NCBI GenBank assembly: GCA_963841915.1
Contig: CAWJEN010000006.1
Coordinates: 1,184,001-1,248,000, forward strand
Reading direction: 5' to 3'
DNA: 64,000 nucleotides
From: an uncultured Planctomycetota bacterium
Lineage (GTDB): Bacteria; Planctomycetota; Phycisphaerae; Tepidisphaerales; Tepidisphaeraceae
Shown here: piece after piece, positions 1 to 16,500 of the stretch
Position numbering within the stretch: the first letter of the stretch is position 1
How the letters are laid out: every line of letters begins with the position of its first letter
Notes under the pieces: generated by a model
What the model was told of the DNA's origin: nothing
The model's database searches: none
The model's input: the letters and a program-made list of their open reading frames with translations, nothing else
Made by a program: the position numbers and the translations under genes

Positions 1-601
1 GCCGATTCTTGAACCGGAAGGCGGCGTTGCGGTCCCACGGGACGCTCGACATGAGCAGGTTGCCGCTAGGCGGAGGCGGACCGGGTTTGTCCGGGTCGTA
101 CCCCTCAGGCGGCGGAAGTTTCGGCAGCGAGAAGCTGTCCTTTTGCCAGAAGAACATCGGCGTCCCGTCGCTGAGCCCGAAGAGCAGCGGGTCGGTCCCA
201 CCCGGAAACGGCAGCCGAAGCTGGCCCCAGCCCAGGTGCGGATCGGCCTCGGCATCCTCGGCGTCGCCCTTACTTAAAGGTGTCACCTCCGCACCGGCGG
301 CCTTGGCCAGGATCTGACTGCCGAGGCCGACACCCAGCGTCGGCCGATCTTCGTCCACAAACCGTTGCACGAGTTCGACTTCGCCGTCGAGCCACCCGGC
401 CTTCTCGCCATACGCGTCGCCCGTCGTCAGCCGTTGTGGGCCACCGAGGATCACGAGCAGGCGGACCTCGTCGATGTCCTGCGGCACGCCATCGTGATCG
501 ACACGGTGGACACGCGTCGGAATGCCAAAGTCGCGGAAGCTGGGCGTGATCTGCCCGGGGCCGAAGGCGTCGTCGTGCTGGAGGATCAGGCAGTAACTCA
601 T
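1..601 (-). CDS. Class I glutamine amidotransferase-like protein (runs off left edge); nucleophile Cys replaced by Gly
   Basis: Not in the ORF track because it is open at the window edge. Manual translation from ATG 601: MSYCLILQHDDAFGPG...LLVILGGP...RPTLGVGLGSQILAKAAGAEV...FFWQKDSF, a GATase1 layout with GVGLG in place of G-x-C-LG. Confidence 0.8.
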   Translation of the reverse strand, partial: MSYCLILQHDDAFGPGQITPSFRDFGIPTRVHRVDHDGVPQDIDEVRLLVILGGPQRLTTGDAYGEKAGWLDGEVELVQRFVDEDRPTLGVGLGSQILAKAAGAEVTPLSKGDAEDAEADPHLGWGQLRLPFPGGTDPLLFGLSDGTPMFFWQKDSFSLPKLPPPEGYDPDKPGPPPPSGNLLMSSVPWDRNAAFRFKNR

Positions 602-856
602 GGCGGCCCATGAACCTACGCGCGTTGTCGTCGCGGCACAACTGACGGGCTTGCTGCCCGTCAGGAATCCGGGCGAGGCGGCCACAAAATATGTTTGACA
701 GATACCAAACATCACCCTACCATGCTCGGGTGGGCAAGGCCGTTGTTCGGCCTCGTCCTGACCGTGCTGCCCCACTCGGGTGCGGCGTTTCGGACGCCAG
801 GCGTCCCCGTTTTGCTTGCCCCCGCCGACGATCGGCGGGTGCCTTGTCACGTCCTC

Positions 857-1348
857 ATGGCCACACCGATCGACCCGAACGCGTTGTCCGCCCTTGGCGC
901 CGCAGGCACTGCCACCCGCGATTTGGCGACCCGCAGAACCTGCCACGAGCAGGCACTGCTTCGCCGGGCGACGCATCTCGACGATGGCGAGCGGAGGCTC
1001 TTCGAGGCCCACATCATCCGCGGCCTGACGGTGCGGCAACTGGCGGGCCTGCTCGACATTCACGCCGGCTCCGTCGCCCGGCGGATCCGCTCGATCCAGC
1101 GGCGGTTGGTCGACCCCAACGTCGCCGCCGTCGTCGACGCCGGTGGGGCGTTGTCGCTGATTGATCGGCAGATCGCGATTGGTCACCTGCTGCGACGCCG
1201 GCCGGTGGCCAGCATTGCCGCCGACGTTCGCAAGACGCCGCCGATCGTTCGCCAGCGGCTGCAGTACATCCGCGGCTGGCTCAAGGGTCGCCGAGATGGC
1301 GCGTTCGCCATGCGGGTGGCCATGCAGCAGACCCGGGAAGCAGCGTGA
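857..1348 (+). CDS. Tandem sigma70 region-4-like helix-turn-helix protein (putative regulator)
   Basis: Two HTH-like units: LDDGERRLFEAHIIRGLTVRQLAGLLDIHAGSVARRIRSI and LSLIDRQIAIGHLLRRRPVASIAADVRKTPPIVRQRLQYI. ATG 857 chosen within ORF 695..1348. Confidence 0.65.
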   Translation: MATPIDPNALSALGAAGTATRDLATRRTCHEQALLRRATHLDDGERRLFEAHIIRGLTVRQLAGLLDIHAGSVARRIRSIQRRLVDPNVAAVVDAGGALSLIDRQIAIGHLLRRRPVASIAADVRKTPPIVRQRLQYIRGWLKGRRDGAFAMRVAMQQTREAA

Positions 1349-1415
1349 AGCGTCGCCCTTGTGTGCCTGGTCCCGAACCTTTGATCTTTCCCCTGTTTTC
1401 GCTCACCTGACGCCG

Positions 1416-2072
1416 ATGAACCTGTTCCCAACTCCGCTGATGCGACTGGCGGCCGACGTGTTCGGCGTCGACCCTGACGCGCCCGACGTGCTGCGCCCGC
1501 CGGACGTCGAACCGCCCGTCGCCGAGGCGGGCAAGATCGTGTTGTTCAACGGCCCGAGCGGTGGTGGCAAAACGACCGCCCTTCGTCGTCACGCCGACGC
1601 CGCTCGCGAGGCCGGTTGGCACGTCGTCGATGTCGGCCGACTGCGCCTTAAGCCGGTCGCCTGCGTCGAGCAGTTCGGCAAGAGCGGCGACGACGAACGC
1701 GACTTTGCCTTTGCCGCCAGCCGACTCAATCAAGTCGGCCTCGGTGAAGTTCGGGTCATGCTCCGCCCGCCCAGCCGGCTCAGCGACGGGCAGCGCTGGC
1801 GACTTCGCGTGGCTGTGGCCGTGTTTGGTGTCCTGCGTCGGCACGCCCTGGCCAAGAAGGCCAAGCGGCCAGGTGTGCCGGAACTGCTGGTGATCGACGA
1901 ATTCTGTGCCGTCCTCGATCGCGTAGCAGGCCCGGTGGTCGCACGGTCACTTCGCCAGACGATCGATCGCGTCAGCCGCGTCGGCGCGCCGCTTGCCGCC
2001 GCGGTGGCCACGAGTCACGACGACCTCCGCCCGGCCCTGCGACCGGATCACATCGTCTGGTGCGAAAGCTGA
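1416..2072 (+). CDS. Stand-alone ABC-family ATPase of the acetyltransferase-associated (COG2401-like) type
   Basis: Walker A GPSGGGKTT, signature LSDGQRWRL, Walker B/D-loop LLVIDEFCAVLDR, H-loop VATSHDDL. No permease nearby. Confidence 0.8.
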   Translation: MNLFPTPLMRLAADVFGVDPDAPDVLRPPDVEPPVAEAGKIVLFNGPSGGGKTTALRRHADAAREAGWHVVDVGRLRLKPVACVEQFGKSGDDERDFAFAASRLNQVGLGEVRVMLRPPSRLSDGQRWRLRVAVAVFGVLRRHALAKKAKRPGVPELLVIDEFCAVLDRVAGPVVARSLRQTIDRVSRVGAPLAAAVATSHDDLRPALRPDHIVWCES

Positions 2073-2077
2073 ACGCC

Positions 2078-2449
2078 TCAGCAGGCGACTTGCCGCAGGA
2101 GCACGAACAGCACCATGCCGACCATCACTGCCGAGAGGATGATCGCCCGCCGCTTGTCTTCCTTTTCGAAGTGCCGCGTGCTGACCTTGCGGTTGACGCG
2201 GGCCTTGGGATCACGTTCGTGGTCGACGAAGCACTTCTGGCAAATCGACGTCGGGCCCCAGGGTTTGAGGTTTTCCGGGACCGTCGGCTTGCCGCACTCG
2301 GCACAGGGGACGCGACGTTTCTTGTCGAGCCGGTGGCAGTCTTTGCACAAGTAACCGTCGCCGTCGCGATAGCGGCGGTGGCCGTCGAGGCTCGTGCCGC
2401 ACTGCTTGCAGACTTTGGGCTTCTGGGCCGTCGTGGTCGGGGTGCTCAT
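2078..2449 (-). CDS. Zinc-finger protein (4 x CxxC) with C-terminal transmembrane helix
   Basis: CKQC...CKDC...CAEC...CQKC followed by hydrophobic AIILSAVMVGMVLFVLL. Confidence 0.7.
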   Translation of the reverse strand: MSTPTTTAQKPKVCKQCGTSLDGHRRYRDGDGYLCKDCHRLDKKRRVPCAECGKPTVPENLKPWGPTSICQKCFVDHERDPKARVNRKVSTRHFEKEDKRRAIILSAVMVGMVLFVLLRQVAC

Positions 2450-2480
2450 CTGAAGAACGGGAACAGCAGGACTTTATGCC

Positions 2481-3026
2481 ATGTCGAGCACCTTGAATCA
2501 ACCCGCAGTCACTCGTTCGCCCTGGCGTGGCCCCGCGTGGATCGGCGGCCGCTGGCGGCTCACGACCGGCACACCCGCCGATTACAAGCTCCTGGCAAAG
2601 TGGCACTACCGCGCGGGCCAGCCTGCAACGTGGTGCCGCGTGGTCGTCGTTCGCCACGAACGCCCGGGCGTGCCGGCCCCGGTGGGTGACGTCGTCGCGG
2701 CCGTCGGTGTGCTGAGCTGGCCCACCATCTGCAGCCGCGGGCGGTTCGAAACCTTCGATCTCGACCGCCGCGACTACCGCCACCTCGCCCGCTGGGCCAA
2801 CGCCAACATCCGCACGATCAGCCGCGTCATCGTGCGGCCCAGCTACCGCGGCGCGGGTCTGGCCAAAGCCGTTATCAGCGAGCTCATCCACCGATGCCCG
2901 ACGCCCTACGTCGAAGCAACTGCCGCCATGGGAGCGTTTCACCCGATGTTCGAGCGCTGCGGCATGAAGCGTCTCGACCCCGCAGGTGGCAAACCCTACT
3001 TCTGGCGCGCGGTGCCGTCACCTTGA
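2481..3026 (+). CDS. GNAT acetyltransferase, Mom/COG2401-like
   Basis: LAKWHYR motif, ISRVIVRPSYRGAGLAK acetyl-CoA-binding motif, AMGAFHPMFERCGM C-terminus. Confidence 0.8.
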   Translation: MSSTLNQPAVTRSPWRGPAWIGGRWRLTTGTPADYKLLAKWHYRAGQPATWCRVVVVRHERPGVPAPVGDVVAAVGVLSWPTICSRGRFETFDLDRRDYRHLARWANANIRTISRVIVRPSYRGAGLAKAVISELIHRCPTPYVEATAAMGAFHPMFERCGMKRLDPAGGKPYFWRAVPSP

Positions 3027-3180
3027 CCGCCGCGGAGCGAGTTGAAGAGAACTCACCTAAAATCGTGCAGATTCGCCCGAGGCCCTTCGGCTGCGCCCTG
3101 AAGGACGAACGGCGAACACGCTTACTCGCGGGTCAAAATCATATTGGCGGCCGCCGGGGCGCAGCGCGGCCAGAGCGTGC

Positions 3181-3699
3181 ATGTCCAAGACCATCACCGC
3201 CTCCCGGGCCGCCGAGCGGTTGCGCAACTTCGAAGCCACACGCAAAGTGCTGACGAGCCAGGAACGCAAACGGCAGTTCCCAAGCGCACAGCTATCCAAG
3301 AAGCACCGTGACGTGCTGGCGGCGGTCGCTGAGGGATCGTCGCTCGAAGAAGCTCGTCGTCGGCACAAGGTGGCCGATCGGACGCTGTTGAAGTGGATGA
3401 AACTACCAGAATTTGCCAAGCGTTTGCGGGAAAAGCAGGAAGTCGCCTCGCTGTGCAAAGGCGACGTCGGCCGTCTGCGGGTGATCCTGCTCGACGCCGC
3501 CACCGACGCCGCCCATGTGCTGGCCGCCAGCGTCCGTGGCGAAATCGAGCTCGACGCCAGCCGGGCCAAGTCGTGCCTCGAGGTGCTCAAACTCGTCCCA
3601 CTCGAAGCCGCGTCGGCAGACAACGAACCCTCACCTCTCGCCGCCAGCGTTACTGCGGCAGAAGCCAGCGACCTCGTCGACGCCCTGAAGAACCGGTAG
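3181..3699 (+). CDS. HTH protein, putative terminase small subunit
   Basis: LSKKHRDVLAAVAEGSSLEEARRRHKVADRTLLKWMKLPEF HTH followed by helical segments; directly upstream of a large terminase. Confidence 0.6.
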   Translation: MSKTITASRAAERLRNFEATRKVLTSQERKRQFPSAQLSKKHRDVLAAVAEGSSLEEARRRHKVADRTLLKWMKLPEFAKRLREKQEVASLCKGDVGRLRVILLDAATDAAHVLAASVRGEIELDASRAKSCLEVLKLVPLEAASADNEPSPLAASVTAAEASDLVDALKNR

Positions 3700-3742
3700 G
3701 CCCCACGACCTCGCTCCCGCTTCCTCCGTCGTCCCAAGCGCA

Positions 3743-5173
3743 GTGGATCGACCCCATCTTCAGAAAACTTTCGCAAAAATGCCCTTCAAGCCCTGCCGCA
3801 CGCCTGATCAACTCCACGCTTGGGTCCGCCTGTTCGTCGGCCTCGACGTGCCGCGCGTCGCACTGTGCGACGGGCACGATGCGCCGTTCGACTACCTCGT
3901 CAAAAGCTACTTCGAGCCGACGAACGACCTGGTCGTCTGGGCACCACGAGGCGGCGGCAAGACGCGGCTGGCGGCGGTCGCGACACTGCTCGATTTGCTG
4001 CACAAACCCGGCACGGCCGTCCGCGTCCTGGGCGGTTCGCTCGAACAATCGCTCAAACTCTGGGATTATCTGCTGCCCGACCTGTCGCGGATCGGCCGCC
4101 GGTTGTTCAAGGGCGGCAAGGCACCGCGGGAGACCAGCCGACGCGTGCGCCTGACCAACGGCAGCGACGGGGCCGTCCTGACGCAAAGCCAGAAGGCGGT
4201 GCGCGGCCTGCGCGTGCAGAAGCTGCGGTGCGACGAGGTCGAAGTCTTCGACGCCGACGTGTGGGAAGCGGCCCAGCTGGCGACGCGCAGCGGCCCGGTC
4301 GCCGCCGCCGCGGTCGAGGCCGCCAGCACGCACCACAAACCCGGCGGCCTGATGGGTCGCATCATCGACTCGGCCATACGTCGCAAGGTGCCGGTGTTGC
4401 GCTGGTGCCTGCTCGACGTGCTGGCCCGGTGCGAGCCCGAGCGGTCATGCGACGGCTGCACATTGTGGGACGAATGCGGCGGCAGAGCCAAGACGAAGTC
4501 GAGCGGCTTCATCAGCGTCGCCGACGCCATCGCCATGAAAGGCCGGGTGTCCAAAGAAACGTGGGAAGCCGAGATGTTGTGCCAACGGCCCAGCACGCGC
4601 GGGTGCGTGTTTCCGACGTTCGACGAGGCGGTTCATGTCAAACCGTTCGGCGGCAAGACGGGCGACTGGGCGATCGGCGTCGACTTCGGCTACGCGGCGC
4701 CGTTCGTCGCGCTCTGGATCGCGATCAACGGCGAGCAGGTTCACGTGGTCGACGAATACCTGCAACGCGGCCGCACCGTTCCCGAGCATGCGGCCGAGAT
4801 GAAGCGTCGCCAATGGCCGGCGCGGAAGGTGCTGTGCGACCCGGCCGGCGCGGCCATCGTCGGCCAGACCGGCGACAGCGACGTCGGCGTCCTGCGGGCA
4901 AGCGGCTTTGCGGTTCGGTTCCGCTCGAGCCGCATCACCGAGGGCCTGGAGCTCATCCGCCGCCGCCTCTGCCCCGCCGACGGCAGCGGCCCGACGCTCT
5001 TCATCGACCCGCGTTGCCGACAGCTCATCGTCGCCATGCGGTCTTACGCCTACGGCGAGAGAGTCGGCGAAAACCCGCACAAAGACGGCACCTACGACCA
5101 CCCGATCGACGCCCTGCGCTACGCGCTGGTCAACCTCGCCCGGGCTGAAAGAGTTCGATCGTCGACAGTGTGA
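3743..5173 (+). CDS. Phage-type terminase large subunit (ATPase plus RNase H-like nuclease)
   Basis: Walker A APRGGGKT, VRG..Walker B LRCDEVE, motif III AST, nuclease acidic motifs GVDFG, CDPA and DHPIDALRY. True start may be ATG 3779. Confidence 0.88.
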   Translation: MDRPHLQKTFAKMPFKPCRTPDQLHAWVRLFVGLDVPRVALCDGHDAPFDYLVKSYFEPTNDLVVWAPRGGGKTRLAAVATLLDLLHKPGTAVRVLGGSLEQSLKLWDYLLPDLSRIGRRLFKGGKAPRETSRRVRLTNGSDGAVLTQSQKAVRGLRVQKLRCDEVEVFDADVWEAAQLATRSGPVAAAAVEAASTHHKPGGLMGRIIDSAIRRKVPVLRWCLLDVLARCEPERSCDGCTLWDECGGRAKTKSSGFISVADAIAMKGRVSKETWEAEMLCQRPSTRGCVFPTFDEAVHVKPFGGKTGDWAIGVDFGYAAPFVALWIAINGEQVHVVDEYLQRGRTVPEHAAEMKRRQWPARKVLCDPAGAAIVGQTGDSDVGVLRASGFAVRFRSSRITEGLELIRRRLCPADGSGPTLFIDPRCRQLIVAMRSYAYGERVGENPHKDGTYDHPIDALRYALVNLARAERVRSSTV

Positions 5174-5290
5174 TCAAGTTGAGGGTCTGACGAAGTGGAC
5201 GCGACACGATGAGTATCGCGGTCGAACCGCGAGCGACAGTCGCCACGCGGACGCCGCATGATGAGGACTAGACTTGCAGCCCCACCGTCC

Positions 5291-5377
5291 GGAAGCGTGG
5301 CAGAGTGGTTGAATGTACCGGTCTTGAAAACCGGCAGGCACGCAAGTGTCTCGTGGGTTCGAATCCCACCGCTTCCG
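5291..5377 (+). tRNA. tRNA-Ser(UGA)
   Basis: GGAAGCG/CGCTTCC acceptor stem, anticodon arm CCGGT-CT-TGA-AA-ACCGG, long variable arm, GGTTCGAATCC T-arm. CCA not encoded. Confidence 0.97.
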
Positions 5378-5399
5378 CTACTTTAAGTCGAATGGTGAG

Positions 5400-5630
5400 A
5401 ACCGCCGCCTCCACCTCGTCAGGCGGCCGACGTCGTCGTAGGCGTAGCGGTGGACGAGCGTGTTCGTGGCGTCGCTGATGCGTTCTTCGATCAGGCGGCC
5501 CAGCGGGGCGGCCGGGGCGTCCCAATTCGGTTCGTCGCCCCAACCGTCGGCGGCGAGGGTCTAGTCGTCGTAGACCATCCCCGTGATGACGCCGGTCCGC
5601 CGCCTACGTCGACGGGTCGTTCGGCCTGCG
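5400..5630 (-). pseudogene. Degenerate RHS/YD-repeat fragment
   Basis: Reads GVITGMVYDD*TLAADGWGDEPNWDAPAAPLGRLIEERISDATNTLVHRYAYDDVGRLTRW. This aligns with GVVTEHVYDDETYVADVHDTDLDWPASPTLGRMVEERV...LVHRYAYDALGRRTAW in the RHS gene at ~9560-9750. In-frame TAG, no start. Confidence 0.8.
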
Positions 5631-5867
5631 GATGTGGATCAGAAGAACGTCGGGACGCCGTATGTGGCCTCCGATCGCCAATACAAGCCGCTACCGACCG
5701 CTGCACGCTGCGACACGGCCACCGCCGCCGCGCAGGAGTGGGACGGCGGCTCCGGCTCACTCATCCTGTTGATCGGCCGCGGTAGCGAGAGAAGCGTTGG
5801 AAAAGGCTCGCGACCCCTTTTTCTCCCCGTCTAAATCTTCTCTGCAAAATAGGCTGCGGACTACAGG

Positions 5868-6419
5868 TTAAGTGTGTGACTCTGCGTCTTGGACGTCTTC
5901 CGGTAGGAGCTCGTCATTTGCCAGCGCGACTCTAGCTACAGCTTCCCCAACGGCAACGGGCTGAGGTGGCACATGTTCAATTCTGCTGTGATGCATCACA
6001 ACCACTCCACCTCTCGCAGGATGTGTCTGCTTTACGATAATCTCATTCTTTCGCTTCTGCACGATGATGTACTTCCAGACTGAACTAACAACGTCTTCTT
6101 CGTTAGAACCAAGTATTTGCCGGTGTTCTGCTTCAACTCGTTTACGAGTTTCGGCATCGGCAAAATGCGTTGAACTGCTTAGAGCCTTTAGTACGGAAGC
6201 ACCGATGCCTGCCGCATCACTGAGGCCCTGAAAATCCCATGAGGGCTCCCCGGAGCCCGTCCACATCCTACCCGCAAAGTGAACCGAGAGCACCTTCACC
6301 TCTGCTCGTGGACATCGCTTGACGTATACGGAGCATTCGTGAATGCCTGTGGTATCATAAGCCCAGTAATCTTCTTGCTCGGGCATGAGCTTCTGGAGAA
6401 TGTTGGTAAAATATCTCAC
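5868..6419 (-). CDS. Orphan toxin immunity protein (CdiI-like)
   Basis: Lower GC than flanks; GTGA overlap with an upstream toxin-like tail; GIGASVLKALSSS and VGEAVARV segments resemble CdiI-type immunity proteins. Confidence 0.6.
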   Translation of the reverse strand: MRYFTNILQKLMPEQEDYWAYDTTGIHECSVYVKRCPRAEVKVLSVHFAGRMWTGSGEPSWDFQGLSDAAGIGASVLKALSSSTHFADAETRKRVEAEHRQILGSNEEDVVSSVWKYIIVQKRKNEIIVKQTHPARGGVVVMHHSRIEHVPPQPVAVGEAVARVALANDELLPEDVQDAESHT

Positions 6420-6512
6420 GAGATAAATTGGACAACGACCTTAACATTCGGAAATTGCGAAGATGCGTTCTTGACCCATTGAGCAAGAGCTCCAGCTTGT
6501 GCCGCGGGAGGT
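6416..6512 (-). pseudogene. C-terminal remnant of a polymorphic toxin
   Basis: ...ALAQWVKNASSQFPNVKVVVQFIS* (helix-strand ending typical of nuclease toxin tips), stop overlaps the immunity start, 5' end cut at the repeat copy 6513-6532. Confidence 0.5.
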
Positions 6513-6739
6513 AAAGGGGTCGCGAGCCTTTTCGACACTGTGAGCACAGCATGATGTTCGCAGCCGTCGCACCCGCATGTTGTACCGCATCGGCCGAGGC
6601 GGCGACAAGGGTAGACCGGGCAATGAACCATCCGGAGGCAGAAAAGGCTCGCGACCCCGTTTTCTGCCCTCGCGACCCCTTTGTCTCCCCGGCAACAAAG
6701 GCTCGCGACCTTTATCTGCCGCCGTCACTGATGAAGCCA

Positions 6740-7549
6740 TCAGCGAGTTTCCACATGCTCGGCAGGAAAGCGGACGATGTGGTCCTTCAGCTTCTCAGGC
6801 ACCTCGATCTCGACGTCCGTGTACTCGGCGTAGTGCACGAGGAACGTCGCGTCCATTGCCACTTTCAACGTCACGTCCATCTTCGGGAACTCGGCCGTCT
6901 TGTAGTAGGTGGCGTAGTCGGCCAGCGAGCCCGACGCCTCCTCCTCGGCCCCCTCCAGAATATGTTCGAGGGTCCACAAGAGCAGCCGCTCGCGGCGACG
7001 CCGGCCTTCGAGGATCGTCGCGACATGTTCCTGAAGTTGCTCGCGGGGCCGGCCGCGGAGAACGCCGGCCAGGACCAGCAGCCAGGCCCTGTTCTCCTTC
7101 TTCTGGTCGATGTCGAGTTGGACGTCGTCCCGGGGGTACTCGGCGAAGCGGAGCAGGCGGTCCCACTCGCCGAGGGATGAGCACCAGACCAGGGCGTCTT
7201 GCCACGCCGAACTCCACGAGCATGTTCGATCCTGCCAAGCCCGGTCAGGTGGCTGATCGCCATAGTTCCCGGAAGGCTCCTCGTCCCGCCACGAGCCGAA
7301 GAAATACTCCTCCGTGGAGTTCAAGCAACGACGAGCCCATTCGGCGGAAATCCGATGCTCGTCCGCGAGATACGCCGTCAAGGCGATGAAGCCAAAACTG
7401 CTTTCGTCCGAAGAAAGCAACCCACCAAGCCCAACATTAGCAACCGCTGTAGCTTGCGGTACCTCCCTTCTGATCTCTTCATAGTCGTTTATTCTCTCTT
7501 GAAAAGCGTAATCATCTTTAGTTAGAGCCAATCGTGCTCGCAGGGTCAT
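6740..7549 (-). CDS. Cognate immunity protein of the RHS toxin (alpha-helical, Imm49-like)
   Basis: Starts 2 nt after the toxin stop; acidic, Trp-rich helical 269-aa protein. The family assignment is tentative. Confidence 0.7.
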   Translation of the reverse strand: MTLRARLALTKDDYAFQERINDYEEIRREVPQATAVANVGLGGLLSSDESSFGFIALTAYLADEHRISAEWARRCLNSTEEYFFGSWRDEEPSGNYGDQPPDRAWQDRTCSWSSAWQDALVWCSSLGEWDRLLRFAEYPRDDVQLDIDQKKENRAWLLVLAGVLRGRPREQLQEHVATILEGRRRRERLLLWTLEHILEGAEEEASGSLADYATYYKTAEFPKMDVTLKVAMDATFLVHYAEYTDVEIEVPEKLKDHIVRFPAEHVETR

Positions 7550-7551
7550 AT

Positions 7552-10500
7552 TTAGAAGTTGGATTGACCGATCTGGCCAATCGTCTTACGGGTAAAAGAA
7601 GGGTCGGCGACGACTCCTGTTGCTTTATCAATAGGCGTCTTGACAAGCAGCACGTCGAGCTTGCCAGACGTACGAGCTTTCTCTAGTTTCTTAGCCCATT
7701 GAAACGACTTCTTATCACGAAGGGTTTTAATCTGCTGCTCGATCCACTGCTTACTCAACTGCTGGTGCCCCGCCGCAAGCCGCGCCAGGTTCCCGGCACC
7801 GCCCTTGGCCTCGACAATCACCAGTCGGCCCGCCGCGTCCTCGAAGACGCCGTCGATGCCGTGGTACCGTGTCGGGAAGTCGTCGACCGACTTGAGTCCC
7901 AGCTTCCGGGCCGTTGTGATCGCCCCAAGTTCCCCGATCGTCGTCACCGCCCGGCGGCTCGCCGCCGCGCCGGAGTTCCGCAAGCCCTGGAAGGCGTCGC
8001 TGAGCACGCCGCCGGCCCCGTCGAGCTTGTTGCCCAACACCCGAGCTTTAGAGAAGAGCTCGCCGAACGGGATGACGTTGCTCAGCAGGCCGGCCAACAA
8101 CGCGGGACTGACGGTTCCGGTCGTGGCGAGTTGGCCCACGATCGTCACCGCATCCCGAATCGTCTCGGCCGCGTCGTAAGCCTTCAACGCCGCACCCACT
8201 TTCGGGCTGCGCATTGCCAGGCTGATCGACGTGCTTGCGCGACGAGTTCCGAATGTAAAGAACATCCCTGTCGGATCGTTCTTGTTGATCGCGTCGCCGC
8301 CGACGAAGCTGTAGAGGTTGGCGTCCCACAGCTCGCCCGGCCCCGGCAGGTAGCTGTCCTGGCTCAGCCAACGCCCGTCTAGGCCACGCAGGCGGCTGCG
8401 TTGGTCGTACGACTCGCTGATCGCGTCGTACCGCTCACCGTGGTGCAGGTGCATTGCCAGCGCGTCGCCGGGATCAAGAACCCCCAGCAGGTTGCCGTCG
8501 GCGTCGTAGGCGTAGACCTGGCCCGTGCCGAGCAGTGCCCGCGTGCCGCTGTGGCCGTCGGTCACGACGTGGCGCAGCACGTCCTGCGTCGCCTCGAATA
8601 GCACCCGGTCGGCGAAGACGCTGTGCCGCTCGAACGTGCCGTCCGCACCGGCGTCCTCGGCCAGCACCTGGCTGTAGCCGGTGAGGCTTTGGCCGTCGAC
8701 GATGTAGGCGGTTTCAGCGCCGGTCTCGGTCGTCGCCAGCACGCGGCGGCCGAGGCTGTTGTAGGCGAAGGTGTGCCCTCGGGGGTGCCGTCGTCGCCGC
8801 GGTCGATGCTCTGGGCTGGCCCAGCACGTTCCAAGCGTAAGCCACGTCGGCGTCGTCGGCCGTCAGGTCGTCCCTCAGCAGTGTGCTGCCGTTGTCGTCG
8901 TAGCTGTAGCTGGCGGTTTGGGTGCCGTCGGCCCATTCCTCGACCAGCCTGTCGTTGTCGTCCACCACGTAGGTCGTGGTGACGCCGTCCTTCAGCTGCT
9001 CGATGCGGTTGCTGGCGAGGTCGTAGCCCCACTCGCTGACCGTGCCGGCGATGTCCTCGCGGATCAGGCGGCCGATGGCGTCGTAGGTCCACGTCGTCGT
9101 GCCGTTCGTCGAGCCGGTGCCGCTTTCGCTGACGCTCCTACGCTGGCCGTTGCCGAAGTAGGCATAAGTCTGCCGCAGCGTGCCCGCTTCCTGCTCGAGC
9201 AGCCGGCCGGCCGTGTCGTAGGTGCGGGTGTAGTCCACATCATTTGGATGCTCCTCAAGCACACGGCGGCCCAGGGCGTCGTAGTGGTACCAACTGGTCC
9301 CCGCCGTCGTATCGATTCTCCTCAGGCGGCCGTGGTCGTCGTACGTGTAGCCGACATCGGCCTCTGTGCCCGGGGCGTCGAGCGACGTCAGGCGGCCGGT
9401 TGCCGGGTCGTAGCCGTAGGTGACGAGACCTTCGGGCTGGAGGTGCGAGGCGACGTTGCCGGTGACGGCGTCGTGCGTCCACGTCTCCAAACGATCAGGG
9501 ACTAGCTGCAGGTTGATTGGCGAACCGGCCGCGTCGTCAGTCTGCCAGCGACCCCAGGCCGTGCGGCGGCCCAGCGCGTCGTAGGCGTAACGGTGCACCA
9601 GCGAGGGTGACGATGCCGTGTCACTTTCGAAGACACGTTCCTCCACCATCCGGCCCAGCGTCGGCGAGGCAGGCCAGTCGAGGTCGGTGTCGTGCACGTC
9701 GGCGACGTATGTCTCGTCGTCATACACGTGCTCCGTCACAACGCCGTCGAAGGCGACCGTCGTCGCCACCCGGCCGCGGGCGTCGTAGGTAATCGAGTCC
9801 TGCTGACCCAGCGGCAGCGTCCGGCCGGACGGGCGGCCTTCGTCGTCGACGGCGAACAGTGTCTCGCGGTTCTGCGGGTCTTTCTGGCTCAGACGGTTGC
9901 CTGCCGCGTCGTAGACGTATTGGAACTTCGCACGGCCGAGCTGCGAGCCGGTCGAAGCGTCGGTGACCTCGGGTCGCCACGCCGCCACCAGACGGCCGGC
10001 GGCGTCATAAACCTCGTGCGTCACGCGGGCCGGCTCGGTGTCCGGGTTCCGCCGCTCGACACTCACCGAGTGCCGGCTCCCGGGGTTGACACTCATCGTG
10101 GCCCCAAGATCGGCAGGCGTGTTGAGGTTCAGCCCTGAGGTTGCTTGCGCCTGGTTTCCGGAGACGCCGCCGATGGCCAATGTCTCCGTGCCGTCGGGGT
10201 GCAGCGTTCGCACGGAGCCGGGCACCTCGTCGCGGATCGTCAGCGTCGGCCGGCCGAGTGCGTCTGTCCACAGCGTGCTGCGTCGGAACGCGCTGTCGTG
10301 AGACGTGGAGACACCGGTGAAGTTGCCGTTGGCGTCGAACTCGTTCTCGATGATCTCGCCGGTAGTGCCGATGATGCGAAGCGCCGGCCGATCTTGCTCG
10401 GCGGCACGCACCGTGCCGTTCTCGATGCCTCGACCGGTTAGGACGTAGCTGAGGGCACTTGGAGCCGCGGTGTCGATGGGCACGAGGCGAAGGACGGCCG

Positions 10501-13500
10501 AGTTGGGCTCGCGGATGGCCCGCACGTTGAACTTCGTCGCGGGCGTGATGCTGTTGATCCCGTCGGCGAGTTGCTGTGCCGCCGCCCGTTGCGTTTGAGC
10601 GTTGCCCGAGGTGAGCACGTTGGAGAGATCGACGGTGACGGTTTCGGAAGTCGTCGGATCGATCGGGTCCGTCAGCGTGAGCGTGAAGGAGTCGTCGAGA
10701 TCAAGCTGGCCGGTCACTTCCACGCGATTGGCGTTCCACCGGTCGGCGAGTGTGCCGGCCACGTCTCCTCGCCCGTCACCGGCGGAGGAGGTGTGCGACT
10801 CGCGGGCGTCGCGGAAGTGCAAGGCGGCGGCAGCGTTCACAGCCGCTGGGTCGACGTACGGGTCGTCGTACGCCGCTGCTACGTGCCAATCTGCCGGCGC
10901 GTCGGCCTTCAGCGGCCCGCTGAATCGGACGCTGCCGTCGAACCAATAGACCGTGCCGACGCGTAAACCATCGGCGTTGACTTGCTCGACCGCACGGCCG
11001 CGGCCGTCATAGACGGTGCGCGTCGTAGCGACCCGATCCGATGCGGAAACGACGGCCGGCAACGTGCGGTAGAGGCCGCCGACTTCTTCCAGCGGGATGC
11101 GTGCGTCGGCGTACTGCTCCGTACCGGCCGCACGACCCAGCGCGTCGTAGATCGTGCGGGTCACGACGTAGCGCGAGGCGTTGTCGAGGTTGCTCCACGA
11201 GATCTGCGGGTTCTGCTCGCTGTAGTTGAAGCTGGCTTGCGTCGTGCTGGCGAACTGCTCGGCCTGCCACTCGGCTCGACCGAGCGCGTCGTAGGCGGTC
11301 CGTGTTTCGGTGCCGTCGGGACGCTGGGTCGCGATGACACGACCTGCGGCGTCGTACAGCGTCAGCGTCGTCGGATCGGTCGCGTCAAGGTTCGGGCCAT
11401 ACTGCTCGACATTGGCGACGACGAGTCCACCGTCACCGTGGTAGGTGTGGGACACGGTGCCGACGGGATTGGCAAGCGTGATGTTGTCGATCGAGCGGAC
11501 GGCCCGGCCGGCGGCGTCGTATTCGGTGAGGCCGTTGGAGATGCTGACGAGCGTGCCGTTGTTGTCCCACTCGCGGAAGGTCTGCGCAACGGAGCCGTCA
11601 GGCTGATAGGTGTAACGCGTGACCAGGCCGGCCGCGTCAGTCGACGTGTCGAGGCGGCCGAGGTGCGTCCCACTGGTGACGTAGGTGTTGCTCGACAGCT
11701 CGGCCAGTTCGACACCGTTGGCATCAACCGTGAACGTTCGCAACAGCAGTCCCTTGTCCAGGTCGCCGATGCCGTCGGTGTACTCGTAGCGGGTCTCTTC
11801 ACCGAGATGGTTCCGACTCCACAGGAGGTTGCCCGCGTCGTCATATTCGTTGCGGGTGACTTGCCCGTAAGGATCGACGACACGCTGCACACCGCCGAGT
11901 TCGTGGTAGGCATGATCGGCTCCGTCCGCCGGATCGGCCTCGTACCAAGTGGTCAGCCACGAGACGCCGTCGGGCGCGAGGACGCGCTCGTAGACGGGCT
12001 TCCAAAGGTCTGTGTCGGAGCTGGCGGGCAGTGCGTCCGTGTAGTTCTTGAAGCTGACCTCTCGGACCTGGCGTGTCGGCGCGAGGTAGAGCCGCTTGCC
12101 ACTCAGGTCAGGGGCCGGCACGGAAAACGGCTCGAATTCTCGCAGCGTGTGGGGCCGATTCCATCCGATCTCGTCGCCGCCTTCTCGGGTGTTGATGATG
12201 GCGGCGTCGTTGTACTCGTACTCGCGGACGGTCACGAGGTAGCGGGTGACGAGCCCGGTGTTGGTGTCACGCTCGGCCCGAATCTCGCGGACGACTTGGC
12301 CGAGCCGGTCATAGACGAACTCGGTATCATTGCCCTCGGCATCCGTTGAGGCGGTGAGGCCGGTGGTCCCGGTGAAGAAGCCACTGTCTAGCAGCGACGC
12401 GTTACCGTCGGCATCGGAGACGGAGGCAAGTCGGCCGGCGGCGTCATAGTCCGCCGCCAGCACGTCGACGTCGCGGGCGTCCGTAATTGTCTCAAGGCGG
12501 TGGCCTGGGCCATATGCGAACGTGGTCACATCCTCCGCGACATCCTTGACAGAGACCAACTCGCCCTCTGACGGCGTCCCGGCGTCGCCGTAGGTGTAGA
12601 TGACACGGCGAAGAACGCCACCACCGGCATCGATAACTTGCGCCTCGCTGACTTGTGAGCCGTTGCGGAGCACGCGCAACGTCAGGCCGCCTGCCGAGGC
12701 GACATCGCCACCGCTGTTGTCAATGAAGGTTGTGGGGTTCCCGTTCGCGTCTGTGCGCGAGCGCACCCTACCGGAGTCGGCTTCGATTTCATACCGGGTT
12801 CCATCTGTAGTTGTGACGTAGTAGCGATTACCGAATTGTGCGTTGGCGGGATTGTATCCGTTGGCACCAACTTTAAAGAACGAGCCGTCGCGGATCAGGG
12901 TGTAGGAATTGACGTCGTCCCACGCTGGGTAATCCGAGTGATCTGGACCGACTAATTCACTTTGGCCGCCAGCTCTGGAGCATGACTTGCAGCGTGGCAC
13001 CGCTGCCGTCAGCTGCGACGAACTGCGGACGCCATGCGAAGCCCAGGCCACTGAAGGGGCTTTGAAAATTCCCCGTCGACCGGTCGGAAGACGAAGGTGC
13101 GTCTCCCGATGCCGGGTAGGTCGATGTAGCACCGGGTCGTTCTCGCGAAGGGCCGGCGGCTCGCTGCCGACGAGCGTGTCGCCGCGGGCATCCGTCTCGA
13201 CCTCCGCCTCGTCAAGCTCGAGACGCCAGCCGTACCCGAAAGCGAGCCGCTCGTGAGCACGGGACGAGTCGTACACGCGTCGGACCTCGATCGGCGCTTG
13301 GCCGGGTACGTCGAGCGTCAGGTCAACGAACGGCAGGACAAGGTTGCCGAGCTTGACGTCCGTCTTGATCTCGACCGATACGCGATCGACGGCATTGGGC
13401 GTGGCGGACTGACCGTCGTCTACGTGGAGAACGAGGTCGTAAACACCATTGGGCAACGACGCCGCGTGCAGCGTTGCCAGAATGCCGCCGTCGGCGGGAA

Positions 13501-16500
13501 TCGAGCCGACGCGGCCGACCGCGTCGTCGACGAGCACGATCGGCTCGCCACCGTCGCGTGGCTCGAGGCGCAACGAATGGGTGAGCGTGTCGTTGGCGTT
13601 GAGGTCCTGAACGACGCCGAATACATCAAAATCTCGAGAGATAATGAACGGCTCACCCGTCGATGGCGGCGAGAGAAGGCGGCCGATCGGAGCGACCTGA
13701 TCAATGACCTGCAGCGAGAATTGGACCTGCCCTGCGCCGACGACTTGGCCATCAGATGCACGAGTCGCCGTCACGCCAATGAAGTAGCCGCCTCGGTTCG
13801 CTGCAGTAAATGTTGCTACGGAGTCGTCAACCGCGTCGACCACCAGGCTGGCGGTGCTGAAGGTGTTGTCCCACGTGAACGAGCCGTCGAAATCAGTGAT
13901 CGGACCGCCATACTGGTCGAGCACCACCGCCCGCAGATCAATGGGATCATTCGGTGATGTGGCTGCTGGATAAGGAACGGATTCGACGCGTAACGACGTC
14001 GGCACCTGGACACTGTCGAACGTGACGGCGTAGGGATCCGAGAACAATGCCCCGTCGGACGCGACCACCGTGAACCCGTAGATGCCGGGGCCCGGAAGGT
14101 CGAGAACAACATTGCGGGCTTCGACCGACCCGTTCCAACTGGGCAGGTCGACATCGCTAATCGACAAGCCAGTGGGGACGGACGTGACGGCCCACGTGTA
14201 AGTCAGGAGGTTATTGTCACCATCGGAATCAGTGCCGGTGGCCGAGAGGGCCAGTCGATTGTCGTGCAACTGGCTGAGGACGCTGACGACTTCAGGAGCT
14301 TGATTAGTCTGATCGGACACTTCAACGACCAGCTCTCCTACCTGATTCCCCTGCTCAACACGTACCGTGTATGTCCCGGGTGTCGTTCCGGTGTTCAGCC
14401 ATGCCTGTCGACCAGCGATGGTCGGGGTCAAGCTCGCGTCAGTGTTGGCCGGATCGAGCGGCTGCCACTCGGCATCAGAGGGAACGAATGGATGGTTGAA
14501 CTGGTCAAAGTAGCTGGCATGAATCGCAAGCAGCCCGTTCTTTGGGCTGGTTACCGAAGGCACCGGGCTACCCGGCAGCGGTGGGAGCGAAATTGCTGTT
14601 GTCGCCGAAGGCGATCCGACTGGTGTCGTGAGCTACATCGAATGTCACGTTTACGTAGCGGCTTTCGATGTCCACATCAGGATGGTCGACCCGAACCTGA
14701 AATGCGTAAATGCCAGCAGCGTTGTACAAGAGCGACGTTGAAGCTTCGGTAGCCGGCTCCAGCCATGTCGGCGACGCGAGCGACGGCTTTTTCACCAAGG
14801 TCCAGCTGTACGACAGATCAGAAGCGTCACCATCGACGTGAGCGTCGATGCTCAGCTCCACGACCTGCGGGTTCATCGGGTCGGCGCTGTTTGCCGTGCT
14901 GCTCTCTACGGTTATGTACGTCGACGGATCAGGATCGACGATGACTTCGAAACTTGCCTCGCTAATTAGGCCCTCTTCATCCGTCACGCTGAATGAGACT
15001 GCATGTCGACCACCGCTGTAGAACTTGGTGTCCCAAGAAAGCATGCCCGGGATCTCGCTACTAAAGACAGGCTTACGCGACCCGAGAGGTCTGAGAACTT
15101 CAAATAGGAGCTTGCTCGAGTCGCCGTCGGGGTCGATTGCTTCGACATCTACGATGATGGTGTTGCCCCCGTAAATGTCGGCTACCGCGTATTGCGGCTC
15201 GATCGGCGTGATGCGGGGCGGCAGATTGATTGCCATGCCGACGGCAATGTTCGACCAGGCCGAGACGCCGAAGTCGCCCTCTGCCCGCACGCGGTAGTGG
15301 TAGCGGAAGTTCCAGTCTTCCGGCACATCTGCAAAGATTGCCGCGTCGCCGTCCGCCTGCCCGGCGAACTCGAACTGGTTGCCGTCGAGCGACCGCTCGA
15401 TCCGGAAGGAGGTCACCAGACCGGCTGAGCGTGTCGCCCAGGATAATTCGATGATCTTGCCGTCGCCCTGCGTCGCGACGAGCGTCGTCGGGCTGGCCGG
15501 AACGCCGCGGAAGACGTCTACGGCAAGCGTGCGATACCGCTCGTTCGTCGCACCCGGTTCGCCGGCAACAAGGTTGTCAGGGTAGTAATCGTCCCGATAC
15601 TCCAGTGCGATAAGCTGATCGGAATCGCCATGGTGCGTGAAGCTGATGCCGTAGGAGTGGTCAAGGTCGGTGCTGGGTGCTCCCCAATACGGGAACTTGT
15701 TCGACACGGAACCCGTGAAGACTGCCGGAGTGTTGACGTCCTCTGCAAGTCCGACGGCGATGCCGTAATCGAGGAAGGCACCCCGCCAGGAGCTTCCTTG
15801 CTGCCGTTCACCAGGGGCCCAGGGCCACTGGCCGTACTCAGCGTCGGCGTCAAAAGGCACGTCATCAGCACTGTCACCCAGACGGAACGAGCCGTCGACC
15901 AAACCATTGGCCGAACCATCTTCCGAAATTTCGTCGCGGAACGAAACGATACTGTCCTCGACATTGAAACCGACCCGGTTGCCGAAGGCGTCGAAGCCGA
16001 GGCTGTGGACGAGTTCCAGCGGCGAACCGTCACGCCCTCGATAGATGTCGAAGCCTTCGTAAGCGTGAAGGTTGCCGTATGCATCCCGCGGCTCGTTCCA
16101 CGTCAGTCGGATGCTGTCTGAAGATTGCGCCCGAGGGCCAACTCAGTCGGCCCTTCGGGTGGCTTCGGAAGATCACTGCCGAACCGTCCGCGAACGATAG
16201 CAAAGATCAAGGATAGAGACGACTCCGTCCCCGTTTGCATCGCCCGTTTCGAAAGTTCCCGCCTGGCCATGGTTCGCTCGCAGGATCGCCCAGTCTAGGA
16301 TGTTGACCTCTCGGTTGCGGTCAAAGTCTCCAGTGTAGAAGAAGTAGGCATCTTCATCGTTGAACCGCCGCTTCTCGGTGCCGATCGGCGTTGTCTCACC
16401 CGACCTGAAAATGCCGTCTTCGTGGACGGTCAGCTCGTAGTTGCCGTCCGGCGGGTAGGCAGTCTGCACATGATTAGGCGGAAGCGTTGCCGTCAGGCCG

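Follow-up and report, generated by a model that had tools for sequence, protein, structure and literature searches.

What is a phage terminase doing in the chromosome of a planctomycete? The question is raised by a 64,000-nucleotide stretch of the genome of an uncultured member of the Tepidisphaeraceae (assembly GCA_963841915.1, contig CAWJEN010000006.1; hereafter the window), in which a terminase closes a five-gene operon at 857–5173. The original prediction had seen here part of a dispersed, vertically inherited, phage-derived machine of the Phycisphaerae, and the distribution of the genes, their trees and head genes found elsewhere in the same genome agree with it. We regard the domestication of a phage as almost certain. 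As to function, gene content leads us to lean, with modest confidence, towards reading the operon as the control and DNA-packaging part of this domesticated phage, which would work like a gene transfer agent and, in the source genus, in a reduced form with a head only. The genes of the operon are:

857–1348, + strand: tandem sigma-region-4-like helix-turn-helix (HTH) protein of 163 amino acids (aa), candidate activator
1416–2072, + strand: soluble ABC ATPase of a phage ABC-GNAT cassette, 218 aa (phrog_11143, 5e-12)
2078–2449, − strand: antisense gene encoding a zinc finger and a membrane helix, between the ABC ATPase and GNAT genes
2481–3026, + strand: GNAT-fold acyltransferase, partner of the ATPase, 181 aa (PF00583 over its cut-off; phrog_886, 4e-10)
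3181–3699, + strand: terminase small subunit (TerS) of the HTH type, 172 aa (phrog_1482, 7e-4)
3779–5173, + strand: terminase large subunit (TerL), 464 aa (phrog_2, 2e-18; Terminase_6C over its cut-off)

The five forward-strand reading frames are all free of internal stops, so the early description of five intact, co-oriented genes holds, except that it missed the antisense gene lying inside the operon. This gene is present at 8 of 33 TerL loci, only in family f1 and there in many genera, and is probably a host insertion. TerL occurs once in the source genome (G000) with its ATPase motifs, Cys4 insert and RNase H-like nuclease motifs intact, and among bacterial TerLs that cover the column in question (72–74 of 74) there is no variation in the Walker A and Walker B motifs, the four cysteines or the two nuclease aspartates. 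A structural model (predicted local distance difference test, pLDDT, 89.5) and a profile search place it nearest to the solved terminases of D6E, SPP1 and T4, which we take to come from headful-packaging phages. The phrog match of TerS is weak, and the protein is also matched by a hidden Markov model (HMM) of the TerS of other families (2.5e-5). The HTH protein matches Sigma70_r4_2 (E 2e-4) and a second HTH (E 4e-4), both below Pfam cut-offs; its start at 857 is favoured over an alternative at 722 because its homologues are 130–170 aa long. Among homologues of the ABC ATPase the signature is kept in 29/29 and Walker A in 25/29, while the GNAT is predicted to fold with a pLDDT of 92 and is fused to the ATPase in two genomes (G091 and G220).

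The terminase is not the orphan that it was first taken for. In a relative (G032) the operon genes run straight into portal, scaffold and capsid genes, and with these as queries the head genes of the source genome were located at a second locus, with a repressor at a third:

G000:C5:841427–844616: SPP1-type portal, 77-residue scaffold and SU10-type capsid (SU10_MCP)
C5:1299531–1300286: HTH-S24 (CI-type) repressor

The element is therefore spread over three loci in the source genome, with about 455 kb between head locus and repressor, and the absence of structural genes from carrier genomes, which had been named as grounds for abandoning the idea, is not what was found. To describe the element as a whole, we mapped the genes of 51 genomes and of one viral contig with our own gene caller and HMMs. 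The packaging part recurs in the order repressor (divergent), HTH, ABC, GNAT, ParB, TerS and TerL, and the head part in the order portal, scaffold, SU10-type capsid, adaptor, short tail-like genes, holin-like gene and lipoprotein. The element is contiguous in G032 and G097 and split in the other mapped genomes. At those TerL loci, 33 in all, whose upstream DNA reaches 6 kb or more, the GNAT lies within 8 kb of TerL in 29, the ABC ATPase in 28, the HTH gene in 27 and the repressor in 17, whereas TerL and capsid are separated by 3.5 kb to 982 kb in the 40 genomes for which both were taken from one contig. The ParB gene has been lost in the family of the source genome, while the end of the scaffold that is of the capsid-binding type is retained even in the source genus. 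Family matches, which include a tail terminator beside TerL, TerS, portal, scaffold and capsid, describe a set of proteins derived from caudoviricetes.

Across 251 Phycisphaerae genomes, each at least 90% complete, 155 have a match to TerL and 141 to the capsid; the two occur together in 137, TerL only in 18, the capsid only in 4 and neither in 92. Presence follows families: both genes are in 13/13 genomes of f12, TerL and capsid respectively in 23/23 and 21/23 of f13 and in 33/40 and 34/40 of f1, and there is no match in f4 (0/10), f14 (0/17), f18 (0/11) and f21 (0/8). Since kin are not independent, these counts are descriptions and not tests. In the tallies G006 enters as a non-match or weak match only, and multiple matches in one genome are, among the matches listed, for the most part fragments of a single frame, with 54 TerL matches lying outside the listing. 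Named relatives belong to Tepidisphaeraceae and Phycisphaerales. In a sample of 301 genomes of the phylum, 8 genomes outside the class match among the matches listed, 3 of them strongly. The homologues are thus class-wide, family by family, and not scattered sporadically through prophages. One locus outside the class (L262 of G351, 434–9521) holds TerL, an SPP1-type portal, a scaffold, an SU10 capsid and an adaptor homologue amid host genes, and is possibly a related domesticated element. In family f6 the ABC, GNAT, ParB, TerS and TerL cassette carries a divergent TerL (L048 of G029 and L025 of G038), and the portal and capsid that come after it in G029 are different ones; this is possibly an independent capture.

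Inheritance was examined with RpoB as the one host marker, in the 34 genomes, out of 47 with RpoB, that hold all four genes. The joined tree of TerL, portal and capsid has 26 of 31 splits in common with RpoB (shuffled mean 0.2, maximum 3), and none of its 21 strongly supported splits clashes with a strong RpoB split, so that the congruence with the host that had been anticipated is present in the joined data. RpoB data accept the element tree (approximately unbiased, AU, test p 0.17), and TerL alone does not reject the RpoB tree (p 0.11, few replicates). The ratio of nonsynonymous to synonymous substitution (dN/dS), taken pairwise within genera with pairs of dS ≥1.5 dropped, has medians of 0.14 for TerL, 0.15 for capsid, 0.17 for portal, 0.21 for GNAT and 0.24 for ABC, as against 0.12 for RpoB, and of 0.12–0.24 over all seven element genes, low as expected. 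A tyrosine-recombinase HMM matched 2 of the mapped loci, both with orthologues of a host recombinase, and besides these no integrase lies beside a mapped element locus. The window itself is also free of integrases, as first noted: the four Phage_integrase matches of the genome all lie elsewhere. We conclude that a phage underwent domestication early, in an ancestor shared by most Phycisphaerae.

These data bear most directly on the idea that the element is a neutral prophage relic or a still-mobile family of prophages. In its favour, some genomes (G142 and G067) have related TerLs of 34–37% identity within regions that resemble prophages, and the element of G112 is decaying. The first of these belong to a sister clade whose members mostly lie in such regions and are accompanied by other portals and capsids, which tells us that wild relatives of the element persist. 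The host-congruent tree, dN/dS far below 1, the intact frames and the lack of integrase and attachment (att) sites largely refute the idea, which we hold to be extremely improbable, and classification of the element as a prophage was rejected on the missing integrase and att, the mostly split virion genes and the class-wide distribution. Composition does not help. The GC content at third codon positions (GC3) of the operon genes is ordinary for the genome, as the host-like GC first seen by eye implied, but it has no value as evidence of domestication because a real, unrelated prophage in the source genome is host-like too (median GC3 0.82 versus 0.81 genome-wide). That prophage is lambda-like (G000:C5, ~181800–216057), was identified by eye from translations plus family matches, and brings a terminase, portal, tape measure, repressor and integrase of its own.

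How would such an operon be controlled? A candidate control region lies ahead of the HTH gene:

692–711: palindrome TGTTTG-N8-CAAACA, candidate operator of the CI-type repressor
695–723, + strand: sigma-70-type promoter-like site TTGACA-17-TACCAT

The promoter-like site is the sole sigma-70-like match in 600–5450 (shuffle mean 0.3), and the palindrome overlaps it, an overlap that is a new finding of the present analysis and marks a candidate operator. Of 30 other genomes, 10 have the pattern WGTT-N12-AACW 5′ of their HTH gene (Markov control mean 0.6, maximum 4), the same half-sites with spacers of 10, 11, 13 or 14 occur in 0–1 genomes, and a half-site is present 5′ of the gene in 21 of 31 (control maximum 9). 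A matrix trained without the source genome returns the palindrome as the top site genome-wide (24.4 versus 18.0). Conserved as it is across the class, the palindrome is a candidate operator of the repressor, in which the Ser and Lys motifs are kept in 17 of 19 sequences and the cleavage-site motif in 14 of 19. Together, we infer, the two could form a damage-inducible switch. A role for the palindrome as a site of a global SOS regulon is unsupported, because nothing comparable to it stands at other places in the genome, and a LexA-like gene is separately present there (C5:25071–25679). Upstream of portal genes a GCGCGCA/TGCGCAC-type motif is enriched (20/40 versus 69/709 controls; for example L099, L131 and L106); as a lead only, it is a candidate site for the HTH activator.

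The origin of the ABC-GNAT pair can be narrowed down. SSU5-like phage-plasmids (SSU5, PhiR41_1 and Cyrano) share its gene order, with two ParB genes ahead of ABC, GNAT, small genes and TerL, and are matched by the element HMMs (ABC E 1e-65, GNAT 1e-28, ParB 4e-22, TerL 3e-35), the ABC HMM finding proteins of both SSU5 and PhiR41_1 at about 1e-65. These phages are complete viruses with TerL identity of ~26%, whereas the Phycisphaerae cassette is chromosomal and inherited with the host. By gene order and profile matches, the pair is best described as the terminase-linked cassette of SSU5-like phages and not specifically as Mom, and "Mom-like", the label first given to the GNAT, proved too narrow. 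The likeness to phage Mu Mom is that of the GNAT fold (Z 11.8, rmsd, root-mean-square deviation, 3.1, 146 aligned). Mom stands at rank 42 in Foldseek and at rank 45 in VIA, without standing out from other GNATs (top match Z 12.8), and a profile search of Protein Data Bank sequences with the element GNAT gave no match to Mom. According to PMC13219725, Mom requires an HTH-like insertion; the 181-aa GNAT has no helical insertion, and longer homologues carry one. A GNAT that adjoins or is fused to an ABC ATPase beside a terminase fits the ABC-ATPase-coupled phage GNATs, which Iyer et al. 2021 (PMC7824862) treat as separate from Mom and predict to acylate an unknown DNA base. TerLs from viral contigs in IMG/VR share 30–41% identity and fall outside the host clade or at its weakly resolved base, except L225; L225 and L311 were rejected as viral relatives because both are nested within the host sequences and resemble bits of chromosome. 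A further group of viral contigs (L226-L229, L231-L238, L240-L243, L245-L247) has a split terminase, with an ATPase-only gene of ~310 aa and, usually, a separate nuclease-like gene of ~170 aa upstream.

Put together, these parts suggest how the element might work. The HTH-S24 repressor would bind at the −35 box, on the palindrome, and, with its catalytic Ser and Lys retained, would cleave itself after DNA damage, so that the operon is expressed. The tandem HTH protein would then switch on the head operon, TerS and TerL would fill heads headful-style with host chromosomal DNA, and the ABC-GNAT pair would acylate a base of the packaged DNA and shield it from nucleases. The packaged DNA would be the host's rather than the element's because there is no integrase and the element may be too scattered for self-packaging; head locus and repressor are ~455 kb apart in the source genome, yet the element is contiguous in a few genomes. 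The element would thus act like a gene transfer agent, reduced to a head in the source genus. Possible, though doubtful, is the fuller picture of a DNA-damage-inducible, independently domesticated, class-wide system of Planctomycetota that packages ABC-GNAT-protected host DNA and, in some lineages, makes a bare head that borrows phage tails or interferes with capsid-capturing phages.

Several observations weigh against a gene-transfer-agent-like function, and some of them speak for its rivals. Delivery and release are unexplained in the source genus, because a search for the adaptor gene came back empty in 4 of 4 of its genomes (a control genome was positive) and HMMs for holin, lipoprotein and tail-like proteins gave nothing credible in the source genome (93.8% complete). 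The TerS-like protein of the element keeps its HTH, in contrast to the RcGTA TerS, described in PMC7947584 as without a specific DNA-binding domain. TerL alone recovers 16 of 31 RpoB splits with one strong conflict among 13, and the joined data of the element, though they accept a tree constrained to the 17 strong RpoB splits (AU p 0.47), reject the RpoB tree in its exact form (AU p 0.0015). In the source genus dN/dS lies at the relaxed end, 0.17–0.31 for TerL, capsid and portal. Finally, 18 of the 155 TerL genomes have no capsid match. Eleven of these were inspected: five carry a divergent, prophage-type TerL, two are in fragments (G164 and G243), in G112 a stop interrupts TerL and the capsid is present as a fragment, and G030 (one contig, 99%), G228 and G248 have an intact host-type operon and no portal or capsid match.

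The last three, with all TerL catalytic residues in place, would suit a terminase operon with a job independent of heads, such as damage-induced cutting or marking of the chromosome for self-destruction or DNA modification, its head locus being separate or fading. The break between TerL and portal, which recurs in most genomes, points the same way. Such a job is nevertheless improbable to our minds, since 137 of 141 capsid genomes also carry TerL, the packaging ATPase motifs are invariant, and ABC, GNAT and HTH lie apart from TerL in the split genomes G001, G014 and G040. Slightly less credible again is that heads are filled with DNA and never delivered, and serve to protect, store or release it as biofilm matrix or as a nutrient or repair reserve; the head-only gene set of the source genus is still under purifying selection, but in many families adaptor, tail-terminator-like and lectin-bearing genes, suited to contact with cells, are retained.

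A different role is suggested by phages themselves. While a scan of viral contigs with a single capsid protein gave no match, a scan with the capsid alignment yielded 76 loci, and two genuine phage contigs carry the element capsid gene with a small upstream gene (L269:6734–8183 and L270:5582–7124). Here the capsid gene is nested in the host clade and lies amid replication and recombination genes, apart from the phages' own head genes, which also counts against a gene transfer agent; because it travels as an isolated passenger, an interaction between element and phages is indicated. Head and terminase might therefore act during phage infection or prophage induction, either by mis-assembling or competing with the capsids of an invader or by forming tail-less heads with host DNA that borrow phage tails. 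This would agree with the persistence of head and terminase in many lineages whose head genes have no tail-like genes next to them, and a damage-inducible repressor would fire together with prophages, of which the source genome has one. As for interference, PADLOC gave no meaningful match, and capsid and portal evolve slowly, which typical defence genes do not. As for borrowing, heads that have no tail and make use of foreign ones are known (10.1101/2025.02.11.637232), but the phage-inducible chromosomal islands that form capsids (cf-PICIs) described there need adaptor and connector proteins, and the adaptor was not found in the source genus. Overall we consider this role unlikely, and still prefer the gene-transfer-agent-like reading.

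The surroundings of the loci add a few observations. A tRNA gene stands beside the operon:

5291–5378, + strand: tRNA-Ser(TGA)

It is where it had been reported to be, but it is no conserved neighbour, adjoining TerL at 2/48 TerL loci; with this and with no att repeat found at it, the tRNA gene was rejected as an integration site. Just beyond it, at 5868–14563 on the − strand, lie a 1949-aa RHS-repeat protein (8714–14563), then a 396-aa continuation with a nuclease-like tip at its end, and lower-GC genes that are possibly immunity genes; this looks like an interbacterial polymorphic toxin locus. At the head locus, the capsid gene is followed by a lyase gene (G000:C5:840029–841297) in three pieces, possibly through frameshifts or sequencing errors, that is whole in most relatives. 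Linkage of lyase genes to the head locus in general was rejected, as it mixes two paralogous families, and only the link in family f1 is retained.

Over half of the genomes sampled in the class carry this phage machine, and its tree follows that of RNA polymerase, which would make the domestication a large, old and independent one. Promoter, candidate operator, predicted cleavable repressor and candidate activator make induction directly testable at the operon locus, and the hosts encode a copy of the uncharacterised ABC-GNAT enzyme, a predicted maker of a new DNA base modification. The lineages also form a natural gradation, with a full set of particle genes at one end and a head only, or a packaging operon only, at the other. 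At the level of titles and abstracts, in the openly available literature, no published description of the Phycisphaerae element was found, and a look-up of sequencing runs gave no entry. The part of the gene-transfer-agent classification in PMC9662315 consulted here has no planctomycete entry, that of PMC7947584 mentions planctomycetes twice, both times for an unrelated prophage, and that of PMC8987985 does not mention them.

Among known systems, cf-PICIs share with the element a head and terminase without a tail module. They are, as portrayed in 10.1101/2025.02.11.637232, mobile islands of 10–18 kb that carry genes for an integrase and for replication and package DNA of their own, whereas the element is split, immobile and host-congruent, and identity with them was rejected on its split loci and lack of an integrase. 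In gene layout the element resembles gene transfer agents, viriforms such as RcGTA and the Caulobacter CcGTA, in that phage-derived head and terminase genes lie at several loci, are inherited vertically and have no integrase beside them. Of the six features set out for gene transfer agents by Kogay et al. 2022 (PMC9662315), three can be recognised from the genomes: proteins derived from caudoviricetes, full endogenization at several loci and vertical inheritance. The element is not a member of the Rhodogtaviriformidae (RcGTA type), which are alphaproteobacterial, as named relatives are in Tepidisphaeraceae and Phycisphaerales and the capsid is SU10_MCP; the RcGTA Pfam families were not compared directly. 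A parallel in control is with CcGTA, where, by the account in PMC9632790, the LexA/CI-like repressor RogA acts over the dedicated HTH genes gafYZ; RogA lacks catalytic residues and is non-cleavable, whereas the repressor of the element keeps them. Compared with both RcGTA and CcGTA, the element, with no neck or tail found in the source genus, stands apart in its host phylum, its SU10-type capsid, its SPP1-type portal and its ABC-GNAT(-ParB) cassette.

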